Shown piece by piece: positions 45,643 to 50,675 of a stretch of 64,000 bases of DNA (positions are counted from its first letter, which is position 1; every line of letters starts with the position of its first letter). The DNA comes from Candidatus Latescibacterota bacterium (GTDB lineage: Bacteria; Latescibacterota; UBA2968; UBA8231): assembly GCA_965248355.1 (NCBI GenBank), contig OZ252098.1, positions 5,088,001 through 5,152,000 of the forward strand, in the 5' to 3' direction. The notes under the pieces were generated by a model. The model was not told the DNA's origin and made no database searches. It saw only the letters and a program-made list of their open reading frames with translations. A program made the position numbers and the translations under genes.

Positions 45643-46986
45643 ATGATTCCACGGTCGATTCCCTTGGTCCTGCTGCTGGCGGCTCTAACTGCGCCGGCTC
45701 TGGCGCAAGCCGGCCCCTCGGCGGCGGCCGGGACCGACACGACGGACGTCTACGAGACCCGGCGCAACCACCTCCTCGCCTTTCCGAAGTACGTCTGGAA
45801 CACCCTGGTCTATCCCATCGGCCGGTTCACCATCTGGGTCGAGCACGAACAGGTGCCCGCTCGCGTGGTGGATCTGTTCACCAACGAGGCGGAGACCTTC
45901 GGGGTCTTCCCCTACGGGGCTTTGGGCGGAGAGACGGGAACCGCCGGCGGATTCACGACGTTCCATTCCGATCTGTTCGGACGCGGCAAGGGATTCTCGG
46001 CGAGCCTGGTCTCCAACCGCGGCAACTACAGCGGAGCCGCCCTGTACGACGACCCGGGCATCGGCGGCGGCCCCTGGTACTGGAATGCCTCTGTCGAAGC
46101 GCTGAGGACGGGGCATGAGAACGCCACCATCAACGGTAAGCTGCGGGGGGCGGGTTCCCTGCTCGATCTCGAGCAGAGGGATGCGAGGATCGCCCTTGGG
46201 CGCGGCTCCAACTACGGCGAGACCGAGGGCTACGAACCGGATGCGATCCTCGAGCTGCGCCTGTCCCACGGCTTCCGGGAGTACGTCGCCGACTGGCCCA
46301 TGCCTTGGCATATTCCCGGCCTGAACCAGGCCATCAACCTGTTCTCGGTGGGCGCCGCAGCAGCCTTCGACGACCGCGACTTCAAGCCGTCCACCACCTC
46401 CATCAGCCATCCCTTGAACTACCAGTTCCCCGGGCGGGTCCTCCTCTTCGCCGACGACCGCTACTACAGTTTCCGCGACACGGCTTTCCCCGAGCACGGC
46501 GGACTGGCCAGCATCGAGGCGGACTATGTAGCGGGTTCCAGGGACGTTCGGTATCTCCGCTACGCAGCCGAGCTGCAGCGCTTCTTCACCCTGTTCTACA
46601 CGAACCGGATCCTCGGTCTCAGGGCCAGGCTCGAGAACACCCACGCCTTGGGAGAGGCCAGCCTTGTCCCGTACTCCGACATGCCCACCCTGGGCGGCGG
46701 CCAGCGGCTGCGCGGCTACCGGCGGGGGTTCTTTCGCGACAAGGGCAGCCTGCTGCTCAGCGCCGAGTACCGCTACCCGATCTGGGATACCTGGAACGCC
46801 TTCCTGTTCTGGGAGGAAGGCCAGGTGTTCGAGAGGTACGGAGATCTCGAAGCTGGCAGGTTCGAGTACAGCTTCGGCGCCGGCATCAGCGTGCGGACCG
46901 AGCGCGCCTTCCTCTTCGGTGTGCGCATCGCGCGCAGCGAGCAAGAGAAGGCGTTGACCGGCTTCTCGCTGGAGAAGGAGTTCTGA
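45643..46986 (+). CDS. Omp85 (BamA/TamA-like) outer-membrane beta-barrel protein
   Basis: Signal peptide; LGGGQRLRGY..G.FRD; SAEYRYP; terminal Phe. Confidence 0.85.
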   Translation: MIPRSIPLVLLLAALTAPALAQAGPSAAAGTDTTDVYETRRNHLLAFPKYVWNTLVYPIGRFTIWVEHEQVPARVVDLFTNEAETFGVFPYGALGGETGTAGGFTTFHSDLFGRGKGFSASLVSNRGNYSGAALYDDPGIGGGPWYWNASVEALRTGHENATINGKLRGAGSLLDLEQRDARIALGRGSNYGETEGYEPDAILELRLSHGFREYVADWPMPWHIPGLNQAINLFSVGAAAAFDDRDFKPSTTSISHPLNYQFPGRVLLFADDRYYSFRDTAFPEHGGLASIEADYVAGSRDVRYLRYAAELQRFFTLFYTNRILGLRARLENTHALGEASLVPYSDMPTLGGGQRLRGYRRGFFRDKGSLLLSAEYRYPIWDTWNAFLFWEEGQVFERYGDLEAGRFEYSFGAGISVRTERAFLFGVRIARSEQEKALTGFSLEKEF

Positions 46987-48659
46987 TGAGCTCCCTGCGA
47001 GCCGCCATGCTGCTGGCCTTCGTGCTCTTGTTGCCGGTCGCAGGTGAGGCCACCTCCAGGCTGACGGCCGACCCCATCAAGTGGTTCGACGCCGACAACA
47101 AGCCGATCGCCGAGCCGGCCGAGGCCGGCGAAAACAAGATCTGGGACTTCATCGACAAGACCACCTTCTACCAGGTCGGCAAGGTCCTCGACCTGGGGTG
47201 GACGGCCCGCCGGGTGGGCCACCTCCTCGGCGTCGTCGGGCCGCGTCAGGCCGACAACGTCAACGCCCTGGACGAGGTGCCCAACTCCTCGTGGTACACC
47301 AACCGGCACTTCCTGCGGCCCATGACCCTGGCGGAGTTGGCCGAAGGGCCGGGGGTGGCCCGGCCCGACGACAGCGGCCCCTGGGAGATCGTGGCCGGCA
47401 AGTTCGAGGGGATCACCGCGGGCTTCACCATCAAGGACGCCTCGGGCCGGTACTTCCTGCTCAAGTTCGACTCGAAGGGGAACGACGAGATGGGGTCCGG
47501 CTCCGAGGTGGTGGTCACCAAGGCGCTGCACGCCGCCGGCTACAACGTGCCGCGCAACTCGGTCGTCTACTTCGATCCCGGACAGCTGGAGATCGGCCCC
47601 AGGGCCAAGGTCTCGGCGGGAGACGGTGAGAAGCGGGCCATGACCCGGGAGGACCTGCAGGAGATCCTCGACAGCCTCACTCCGCAGCCGGACGGCACCC
47701 TGCGCTGCCTGGCGAGCCAGTTCCTCGAGGGCAAGCCGGTAGGGGTCTTCAACTACGACGGCCGGCGCAAGGACGACCCCAACGACAAGGTGGACCACGA
47801 GCACCGGCGCGAGCTGCGGGGGTTGCGCGTCATCGGCTCCTGGCTGAACGACGCCGACCGCCGGGCCGCCAATACCCTGGACATGTACGTGACCGAGGCC
47901 GACGGCCGCAGGTACGTCCGCCACTACCTGATCGACATGGGCTCCGCCCTCGGCAGCGGCAGCTGGAGACCGCACCAGCCCAAGCACGGCAACGAGTACA
48001 TGGTGGATCTGCGCACGATCTTCGGGTCCTTCGTCTCGTTGGGGTTCTACCGGAAGGAGTGGGAAGAGCCGGTGCCCATGTCGTACATCTCCCTCGGCTA
48101 CTTCGAGAACGAGACCTTCAGCCCCGGGGGGTGGGTGCCGGACTATCCCAATCCCGCCTTCGAGCGTTGCACCAACCGCGACGGGTACTGGGGCGCCAAG
48201 ATCGTCATGGCCTTCGGCGACGACGAGATCCGCGCCATGGTGGAGCGGGGGCGCTACTCCGATCCGGGCGCGGCGGAGGAACTGACCCGGCTCCTGGCGG
48301 AGCGGCGGGACATGATCGGGCGCTACTGGTTCGAGCGGGTCAACCCGCTGGACCGCTTTGCCGTTGACGGCTATCAGCTTCGATTCGTCGATCTCGCCGT
48401 GGAGGGCGGGCTCGTTCCGCGTGAGTCACGGCAGTGGCGGTATGCTGTCGTCGACGCGGAGGGGGATCGGCTGGTCGAGCCGCGGCGGGTGGCAGAGCCG
48501 GTCCCGATCGGGGACGAGGCACGGCCGGGTCGGTTCTTCGGCTACCGGCTGCAGAGCCGCAGCGGCGAGAGGGAGAAGTGGAGCAAGAGCACGACGGTGT
48601 TTCTGTACAATCACGAAGACGGACGTCTGCAACTGGTGCGGATCGACAGGGAGGAGTAG
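46986..48659 (+). CDS. Secreted atypical kinase-like protein (PI3K/HipA-like motifs)
   Basis: Signal peptide MSSLRAAMLLAFVLLLPVAGEA; YFLLKFD, SEVV, DRRAAN (DxxxxN), YLIDMG; TGATG coupling. Confidence 0.65.
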   Translation: MSSLRAAMLLAFVLLLPVAGEATSRLTADPIKWFDADNKPIAEPAEAGENKIWDFIDKTTFYQVGKVLDLGWTARRVGHLLGVVGPRQADNVNALDEVPNSSWYTNRHFLRPMTLAELAEGPGVARPDDSGPWEIVAGKFEGITAGFTIKDASGRYFLLKFDSKGNDEMGSGSEVVVTKALHAAGYNVPRNSVVYFDPGQLEIGPRAKVSAGDGEKRAMTREDLQEILDSLTPQPDGTLRCLASQFLEGKPVGVFNYDGRRKDDPNDKVDHEHRRELRGLRVIGSWLNDADRRAANTLDMYVTEADGRRYVRHYLIDMGSALGSGSWRPHQPKHGNEYMVDLRTIFGSFVSLGFYRKEWEEPVPMSYISLGYFENETFSPGGWVPDYPNPAFERCTNRDGYWGAKIVMAFGDDEIRAMVERGRYSDPGAAEELTRLLAERRDMIGRYWFERVNPLDRFAVDGYQLRFVDLAVEGGLVPRESRQWRYAVVDAEGDRLVEPRRVAEPVPIGDEARPGRFFGYRLQSRSGEREKWSKSTTVFLYNHEDGRLQLVRIDREE

Positions 48660-48665
48660 CCGAGT

Positions 48666-50117: not shown

Positions 50118-50128
50118 AGGTGCCTGGT

Positions 50129-50675
50129 ATGAGAATCGAGCCGGCCCTTGCTCTCTGGATCCTCATCGGCTCGGCGTGCAGCCATACCAGTCCTATGTCC
50201 GGCGAGAGGATCAGCCACAGGGTCCTGTTGTTCGGAGATGGAGGCGCGCCATCCATCGACGAGGCGACTCCCGCCGGGGAGCTCTACAAGGGTGATCCCA
50301 CTCTGAGAAGCCTCCATTGGTGGGCCCGGAGCATCGGGGGCGGGCGGCCGGGGCCGGCCAAGGTGGACAAGGATGGTGTTCGGATCATAGCGCTCGATAC
50401 CCAGTGGTGGTTGCATCGCGACGATGACAAACCAATGGACTTGAACGGCCGGTTCCCCTGCCGGTCGCGGGCAGCATGTACCCACTCGGACCACAGTCTC
50501 CATCCTCGTCAGCGGTTCGGGCTCGAGGACGAGCAATGTGAGTCACGGGAAGGACACCCTCTTTGCCCACGAACATCTGGGGTACATGGCGGTCGATTTC
50601 GTGGAGGATGGCCGGGTCCTGCTGCGGGTGGTCGAGCCCACGGAGGAGGGGCAGATGATCGCTGGAGTCATCTAG
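50129..50675 (+). pseudogene. Remnant of an exported calcineurin-like metallophosphoesterase
   Basis: Lipoprotein-like leader ending GSAC; LFGDGG; IALDTQWWLH; DHSL; in another frame ILVSGSGS...FAHEHLGYMAVDF..DGRV; central GDN and GNHD motifs missing. Confidence 0.65.

Follow-up and report, generated by a model that had tools for sequence, protein, structure and literature searches.

Introduction

The periplasm is regarded as lacking ATP, and known periplasmic phosphorylation, such as that carried out by LpxT on lipid A, uses donors other than ATP. Carriers of the NTT/TLC family, including those of Rickettsia, Chlamydia and plastids, exchange ATP and ADP. Omp85 outer-membrane barrels can be tied to enzymes, and the available part of Heinz & Lithgow 2014 (PMC4104836) lists PlpD (type Vd, patatin-POTRA-Omp85), PF00149-Omp85 'Metallo' and 'noNterm' forms. 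A putative lipid kinase of the protein-kinase-like (PKL) type beside a PAP2 phosphatase has been described in Segetibacter as the SEAE1 'PAP2-PIK-like module' (bioRxiv 10.64898/2026.09.18.752743); the authors, in the portion of the preprint available, report a non-secreted, one-genus arrangement. Here we describe a locus in a 64,000-nucleotide stretch of a Candidatus Latescibacterota bacterium genome (assembly GCA_965248355.1, contig OZ252098.1, positions 5,088,001 to 5,152,000; hereafter the window), in which genes for an Omp85 barrel (O), an exported protein with kinase-type residues (K) and a TLC/NTT-family transporter (T) precede the remnant of a phosphoesterase gene:

45643-46986, plus strand: gene 1 (O), Omp85 barrel, 447 amino acids; open reading frame (ORF) with a signal peptide and a Pfam Omp85 match
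46986-48659, plus strand: gene 2 (K), predicted exported protein with kinase-type residues, 557 amino acids; no family match
48666-50117, plus strand: gene 3 (T), TLC/NTT-family MFS transporter, 483 amino acids; Pfam TLC match
50129-50675, plus strand: gene 4, decayed remnant of a lipoprotein-type metallophosphoesterase; pseudogene with internal losses and a frameshift

Each part of this module belongs to a known superfamily. An earlier reading of this DNA, made from the letters alone (the sequence-only reading), had known of no described system with such a composition, and our literature search, which covered papers without their supplements, likewise found none that describes an Omp85, kinase-like and NTT module or names the K family. 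Closest to it comes the intracellular SEAE1 module, which we liken to K by its description; in the available text of that preprint 'Omp85' occurs 0 times, and section 7 presents no transporter of the T kind. Linkage of NTT genes to Omp85 or to a kinase-like gene likewise goes unmentioned in the available part of Major et al. 2017 (PMC5381601). On the genomic evidence presented below, O-K-T is probably a new envelope system.

The layout that the sequence-only reading had reported, four genes on one strand with a TGATG overlap and gaps of 6 and 11 nucleotides, was reproduced from the ORF coordinates. The longest ORF of gene 1 opens at TTG 45571, while the ATG at 45643 yields a clean signal peptide, MIPRSIPLVLLLAALTAPALAQA. 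Its stop codon (TGA, 46984-46986) overlaps the ATG of K (46986-46988) in the TGATG junction, K ends with TAG at 48657-48659 and T begins 6 nucleotides later, and the ATG of gene 4 at 50129 lies 11 nucleotides past T. G+C content is even across the region (0.64-0.69), so recent insertion is not suggested. A promoter and terminator scan returned no more sites than in shuffled sequence, and an Rfam scan gave no match near the operon.

An Omp85 barrel and K form the core of the module

A genome scan matched 294 stretches, 268 of which encode a K relative, and 79 loci (80/268 matches) were kept with flanks of ±6 kb. We scored adjacency of O and K in the 71 loci whose sequence extends 1400 bp or more upstream of K, and the presence of T in the 70 with at least 2 kb downstream. 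The loci closest to the window encode K proteins 86-89% identical to its own. O lies directly upstream of K on the same strand in 61/71 loci and somewhere in the locus in 66/71. Three of the ten adjacency exceptions still have an upstream barrel: in L020 and L038 a metallophosphoesterase gene separates barrel from K, and in L012 the interval is absorbed into an over-long ORF call. The pair also travels as a unit, being tandemly duplicated in L002, L008 and L050, with the order O K O in L001; L008 encodes a shorter K paralogue (449 amino acids, no Pfam match). Pairwise distances among O and among K proteins correlate (r 0.665; highest value over 500 shuffles, 0.155), which we take to show co-inheritance only and not co-evolution.

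The two proteins can also be found as one. A 981-amino-acid protein (P0270) joins a lipobox and a K region, with HGDMRGPN and DFG, to an Omp85 domain (Pfam 5.3e-20) ending in a terminal Phe. Because its K-then-O order opposes the gene order, P0270 is not a read-through product. A second candidate, a GT4-K fusion (P0255), was dropped as a module part, as it was seen only once and may stem from a faulty gene call. The Omp85-K pair is the invariant core of the module, while the translocase and the phosphoesterases are frequent, dispensable neighbours. The four-gene system of the sequence-only reading is therefore kept in part: its O-K core stands, supported by adjacency, duplications and fusion, but its translocase and phosphoesterase are not obligatory members.

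Gene 1 had been called an Omp85 barrel, and both sequence and model bear this out. O scores 42.8 bits against Pfam Omp85 (PF01103; cut-off 24) and only 19.3 bits against the BamA model TIGR03303 (cut-off 297), under the equivalog level. An AlphaFold2 model (mean pLDDT 80.8, pTM 0.77) contains a signal helix, helices at 40-79 and 16 long strands, and a Foldseek search with it against the PDB returned the barrels of BamA, TamA and Sam50 (E 1e-12 to 1e-9, probability 1.00, query-normalised TM-score 0.50-0.55). Loop 6 of Omp85 proteins carries the motif (V/I/L)RG(F/Y), which in O is LRGY; R357 and G358 are invariant across 28 aligned barrels adjoining K relatives, with the consensus LRGF. All 28 match Pfam Omp85, none matches a POTRA model, and one matches ShlB (E 0.019). 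In the model of O, too, only helices 40-79 stand before the barrel, with no POTRA. We therefore identify O as a POTRA-less Omp85-family outer-membrane barrel with a BamA/TamA-like 16-strand fold, and it fits the 'noNterm' class as delineated in the available part of Heinz & Lithgow 2014 (PMC4104836).

A barrel of this fold coupled to an enzyme, with a K-Omp85 fusion among its relatives, resembles PlpD and 'Metallo'. Further resemblance to PlpD comes from five loci (L025, L026, L044, L045 and L047) in which a PlpD-like patatin-Omp85 gene (770 amino acids) and a 905-amino-acid Omp85 gene lie downstream of O-K, giving three Omp85-family genes in a row. These likenesses raise the question of whether O and K are a split secretion or display pair, in which O, as a translocator of the type Vd PlpD or two-partner-like kind, would export K to the surface or the medium and T would be a separate matter. 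K might then be, for example, a HipA-like kinase effector that acts on other cells or external substrates and uses the ATP of its target. The tight adjacency and duplication of O and K fit such a pair, as do the passenger-then-barrel order of P0270, which is that of PlpD, the patatin-Omp85 neighbours, and the Omp85 subfamilies fused to patatin and PF00149 (Heinz & Lithgow 2014, PMC4104836, as far as available). Unlike PlpD and 'Metallo', however, the window encodes barrel and enzyme as separate genes, barrel first, with a transporter gene attached, and K is kinase-like rather than a lipase or phosphoesterase. Known translocating Omp85 and TpsB proteins carry POTRA, which O, unlike PlpD, does not. 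K is also highly conserved among close relatives, unlike polymorphic effectors; the lipobox in about 40% of its family implies a membrane anchor; no immunity-like partner gene recurs in the gene-order map; and both the linkage of T and the T-O fusions described below would go unexplained. We consider secretion of K by O distinctly unlikely.

K is predicted to be an exported member of a large unnamed family

K has no sequence match in Pfam, NCBIfam or the PDB (the last searched with K and two family alignments, with only noise returned), and tblastn against plasmids gave no match. A word-indexed search with K nonetheless found 2324 proteins among 8000 scored candidates; among the 120 matches listed, every source-given name was 'hypothetical protein' and none had a Pfam domain. 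An exhaustive search reached 2926 cluster representatives at E ≤ 0.001, 826 of them at E ≤ 1e-30. By these searches K is a member of a large unnamed protein family.

The sequence-only reading had pointed to a Lys, a Glu, DRRAAN and DMG in kinase-like order. These are present, as YFLLKFD (K160), E174, DRRAAN (D291...N296) and DMG (D317-G319), and are conserved across the family. In an alignment of 32 close relatives (49-86% identity; mean column identity 58%), there is no variation at K160, D289, D291-N296, D317 or G319, and at least 90% keep E174. A wide alignment of the window protein with 150 cluster representatives (151 sequences) keeps K160 in 136/151, E/D174 in 134/151, H271 in 148/151, D291 in 142/151, N296 in 140/151 and D317 in 143/151. 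Across the 151, 93 have His at position 289, and the wider-family consensus, NHxDxRxxN...LIDFGS, combines a loop of the HxDxxxxN type with a DFG motif. In ATP-dependent kinases, this conserved Lys/Asp/Asn/Asp set binds nucleotide and Mg. K thus appears to have the catalytic residues expected of a phosphotransferase of the protein-kinase-like type (HipA / PI3-PI4-kinase-like), and from these we infer a kinase fold and activity.

Conservation of the signal peptide, on which the sequence-only reading had rested its secreted kinase, is borne out: 222/235 full-length members have an N-terminal hydrophobic 10-mer, and 92 of those have a lipobox-like Cys. K is accordingly predicted to be exported, and often a lipoprotein (lipobox in about 40% of the family). 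The lipobox Cys column is the only widespread conserved cysteine (68 of 151 sequences), and conserved cysteines were dropped as a sign of disulfides in K.

A TLC/NTT-family carrier extends the pair in many lineages

T scores 75 bits against Pfam TLC (cut-off 21) and also matches MFS_1. With phmmer it is similar to solved NTT structures (9j3n, E 6.8e-11; 9j3j, E 4.2e-10), and crude hydropathy gives about 11 hydrophobic segments. These similarities identify T as a true NTT homologue, related to the carriers of Rickettsia, Chlamydia and plastids. One difference from those carriers lies in the hosts, since organisms with the K module bear the labels of uncultured environmental lineages such as Latescibacterota and Gemmatimonadaceae.

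A TLC-like gene adjoins K downstream in 31/70 loci and occurs somewhere in 44/70. Counted by record-title label, TLC genes are present in these loci:

Latescibacterota: 11/26
Rhodothermales/Salinibacter: 9/11
Nitrospira: 6/10
Ignavibacteria: 3/3
Calditrichota: 2/8
several singletons

Among the loci, 23 have an orthologue of the gene 3 type (at least 38% identity), 25 a long TLC protein (>700 amino acids) and 35 one or the other. When 679 ORFs were clustered, a recurring order emerged in Latescibacterota- and Balneolaceae-labelled loci, in which O, K and T are followed by a long TLC (>700 amino acids) and a small TLC-clustered ORF; T also neighbours O-K under the labels Rhodothermales/Salinibacter, Calditrichota, Nitrospira, KSB1, Ignavibacteria and Planctomycetota. 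In the three long TLC proteins tested (L060, L077 and L012), HEAT repeats were confirmed with Pfam, and in L077 the small ORF has a cNMP-binding domain. These TLC-HEAT and cNMP-binding genes of the K loci recall the NTT-HEAT and NTT-HEAT-cNBD forms of free-living bacteria that appear in the available part of Major et al. 2017 (PMC5381601).

Fused ORFs link T to the barrel as well. Searching with the barrel part of P0270 retrieved P0274 (813 amino acids; precomputed Pfam TLC, MFS_1 and Omp85) and P0275 (818 amino acids), each consisting of TLC, a signal-peptide-like segment with AxA, and Omp85. This architecture suggests either that signal peptidase cleaves a polyprotein or that an inner-membrane carrier is co-translated with its outer-membrane partner. 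Because both K-Omp85 and TLC-Omp85 fused ORFs exist, the barrel is tied to K and T alike. The sequence-only reading had staked its proposal on the translocase co-occurring with K and had called for a search for conserved neighbourhoods and fusions; T accompanies K in the numbers given above, the two TLC-Omp85 fusions are independent, and the combination recurs in other phyla.

The alternative that these four genes have no joint function, being neighbours by descent in one lineage, draws on the surroundings. An MscS-like gene (50672-51595, minus strand) adjoins gene 4, which is itself decaying, and was rejected as a module part, being found only in close relatives and scattered loci; the upstream WD40 gene was rejected likewise, as it is kept only in close relatives. 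For O, K and T this alternative is contradicted by conserved adjacency and by the K-O and T-O fusions, with a linkage that spans about nine phylum-level labels, and we give it next to no weight. At the level of gene organisation, O, K and T are shown to be functionally linked genes.

Phosphoesterase and other neighbours

Gene 4 has no Pfam or NCBIfam match. Three collinear pieces of it, in frames 2 and 3, match a Metallophos protein (L077:12230-13438) with E 0.35, 3.5e-5 and 0.12. The second frame has its stop at 50675, where the sequence-only reading had ended the gene, and the first frame continues to 51088, antisense to the MscS-like gene. Outside the window, the fetched loci hold only a 36-nucleotide trace of it, in the close relative L002. 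Gene 4 is best described as a decaying metallophosphoesterase pseudogene rather than an intact gene. The phosphoesterase remnant that had been proposed here is thus upheld, split over two frames and with internal losses.

Among the 79 loci, PAP2 genes occur in 21, including all 10 labelled Nitrospira, Nitrospirae or Nitrospirales and all 3 labelled Ignavibacteria; they occur in 0/26 Latescibacterota-labelled loci, and none was seen in the scanned parts of the window. Metallophos genes are found in 5 clustered loci and in L077, and PhoD genes in 4 loci. The Salinibacter locus L060 has both PAP2 and PhoD, together with O, K, TLC-HEAT and T in that order. The neighbouring Metallophos proteins have weak cyclic-nucleotide phosphodiesterase-like matches, and the PAP2 proteins are of the membrane type with weak undecaprenyl-diphosphatase-like matches.

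Two other kinds of neighbour were seen. Two-component genes (cluster 4, 18 loci) were rejected as module parts, since generic domains are what unites that cluster. A conserved protein of about 310 amino acids with no Pfam or NCBIfam match (cluster 6, for example L056:7743-8738) occurs in 10 Nitrospira-type loci, directly downstream of K in 9/10 and further downstream in L075, with a sigma-54 activator nearby in six.

A proposed model of phosphorylation outside the cytoplasm

The arrangement suggests an envelope module in which the O-K core, a POTRA-less barrel with its cognate exported partner, is extended by T, an NTT/TLC inner-membrane carrier encoded in the same operon in the window lineage and many others, so that phosphorylation could take place outside the cytoplasm. 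T would exchange cytoplasmic ATP for periplasmic ADP. K would be bound by O and held at the outer membrane, a placement suggested by the lipid anchor and the K-Omp85 fusion. There K could use the nucleotide to phosphorylate a target in the envelope, which may be a protein or else a lipid or glycolipid of the outer membrane. In other genomes the accompanying PAP2, metallophosphoesterase and PhoD enzymes may remove the mark or recycle the nucleotide, the window's own partner having decayed. Beyond the activity of K, we infer its binding to O, its side of the outer membrane, what T carries and in which direction, and the target. Taken whole, we put this proposal at a little short of an even chance.

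A protein-kinase-like core of K agrees with its conserved residues, with matches of its relatives to HipA and with weak Atlas leads, but the likenesses to HipA stay below threshold or significance, and several other observations weigh against the proposal. When 68 K members were scanned against Pfam at a lax threshold, 12/68 matched HipA_2 (best E 7.4e-5; best 22.6 bits, cut-off 27) and 12/68 matched HipA_C, every other Pfam family appearing in one member only. The matches are collinear, with K ~121-226 on profile positions 4-92 (N-lobe) and 260-310 on 105-155 (catalytic loop), but all fall below the 27-bit gathering score and the window's K has none. The spacing of catalytic residues is close: 131 residues from Lys to Asp in K and 128 in Escherichia coli HipA, an identical Asp-x4-Asn, and 21 residues from Asn to Asp against 18. 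In an hhalign comparison of the K-family alignment with one of six HipA sequences, 144 columns place K160, D291, N296 and D317 on K181, D309, N314 and D332, which are invariant in the six; this alignment, at a probability of 1.85% and E 0.027, is not significant and does not improve on an unrelated control, in which the K family was set against Omp85 (E 0.054, 21 columns). Against a single HipA sequence the probability is 0.35%. The window's subfamily is moreover atypical, with DADRRAAN, in which the His of HxD is replaced by Asp, and DMG instead of DFG.

K also departs from HipA and the PI3-PI4 kinases in being exported and often lipidated, in having extra N-terminal (~130 amino acids) and C-terminal (~230 amino acids) regions, and in lacking an antitoxin partner, being paired with an Omp85 barrel instead. 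Among named Atlas clusters, Fam20C, HipA_2 and PI3_PI4_kinase lie nearest to it, with values of 0.79-0.86; a value below 0.9 serves only as a lead. The top named lead, the secretory-pathway kinase Fam20C (0.81-0.86), offers a parallel in concept, as it works in a lumen without ATP synthesis that relies on a carrier to import nucleotide; it is eukaryotic, and the likeness to K is one of concept and not of shown homology.

On the side of the carrier, T scores 60.9 bits against the NTP/NDP exchanger model TIGR00769, far below its cut-off of 387.2, which sets it apart from the known NTT/TLC carriers. The ATP/ADP translocase of the sequence-only reading is accordingly upheld as to TLC family and homology to solved NTTs but falls short of the exchanger level. 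Characterised NTTs are importers, and the free-living and fused forms are called uncharacterised, in the available part of Major et al. 2017 (PMC5381601). No TLC-like gene is present in 26/70 loci with enough flank, so K is apparently able to work without an adjacent carrier. Periplasmic ATP could leak away through porins. Finally, the phosphoesterase is dead in the window and therefore not essential.

Some of the same evidence suits envelope-lipid remodelling without ATP export. K, together with O, would act as a phosphotransferase on lipids or as a pseudo-kinase that binds them; T would carry not ATP but, for example, a lipid-derived or phosphorylated metabolite; a lipid pyrophosphate could serve as phosphate donor, as it does for LpxT; and the PAP2, patatin and flippase-like neighbours would share one lipid pathway. 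The membrane-type PAP2 genes and the patatin-Omp85 genes are consistent with this, as are an LPG_synthase_TM / flippase-like gene in Salinibacter-type loci, the low exchanger score and MFS_1 match of T, and the PI3_PI4_kinase lead for K. LpxT itself is described, in the available part of the source, as a transferase that phosphorylates lipid A in the periplasm, linked to undecaprenyl phosphate synthesis. Against a lipid pathway stand the absence of PAP2 from the Latescibacterota-labelled loci and from the scanned parts of the window, and the significant similarity of T to solved ATP/ADP carriers. The residue set of K, moreover, is that of ATP-dependent kinases, and we know of no PKL enzyme with a lipid pyrophosphate donor. 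We hold this alternative to be unlikely.

The importer function of characterised NTTs (Major et al. 2017, PMC5381601, in the part available) is also what recommends a scavenging role, in which T would import nucleotides, phosphoesterases would harvest phosphate and K would bind or process periplasmic nucleotides. The PhoD, PAP2 and weakly phosphodiesterase-like Metallophos neighbours would have a place in it. Phosphatases would, however, destroy the nucleotides meant for import by T, the tightest linkage is that of O with K rather than of T with a phosphatase, and no TonB-dependent receptor or binding-protein gene recurs in the gene-order map. To our knowledge, Omp85 barrels do not serve as nutrient channels. 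Scavenging therefore seems very unlikely to us.

If exported phosphorylation by O-K-T is true, the occurrence of an ATP/ADP-translocase homologue with an exported kinase-like enzyme and a barrel in multiple phyla would challenge the view of an ATP-free periplasm, and would amount to the bacterial equivalent of Fam20C and other lumenal kinases. A role would also fall to the NTT and NTT-HEAT proteins of free-living bacteria that are called uncharacterised in the available part of Major et al. 2017 (PMC5381601). The module would define the large family of K and supply 'noNterm' Omp85 barrels with a partner, and culturable carriers, such as Salinibacter, exist. A broader version, which we find doubtful, is that many environmental diderms phosphorylate outside the cytoplasm, with NTT carriers, some HEAT/cNMP-gated, exporting ATP, O-docked K phosphorylating outer-membrane lipids or proteins, and PAP2 enzymes or metallophosphoesterases erasing the marks. 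Even if the mechanism is wrong, the O-K pair stays an undescribed conserved envelope module.

Other features of the window

The window encodes three Mutator-family (IS256-like) transposase ORFs of 423 amino acids each (6851-8122, 26497-27768 and 40307-41578), whose DNA is 93-99% alike; Pfam Transposase_mut matched the two copies scanned at about 6e-35. Because the third copy sits between two WD40 ORFs (38549-40222 and 41623-45546), it has probably divided a single giant WD40/Big_1 gene immediately upstream of the module. The remaining features are as follows:

9062-9426, minus strand: tmRNA gene (Rfam, 180.5 bits)
11862-12336, minus strand: CRISPR array with seven DR16-type repeats (Rfam)
29859-38541: block of 72-75% G+C, against about 61-69% in most other parts of the window, holding a 1612-amino-acid FtsX/M28 protein, a DUF6785/DUF6784 protein and an unassigned 650-amino-acid ORF
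58195-61790, minus strand: non-homologous end-joining pair of Ku and LigD (primase-polymerase, phosphoesterase and ligase)

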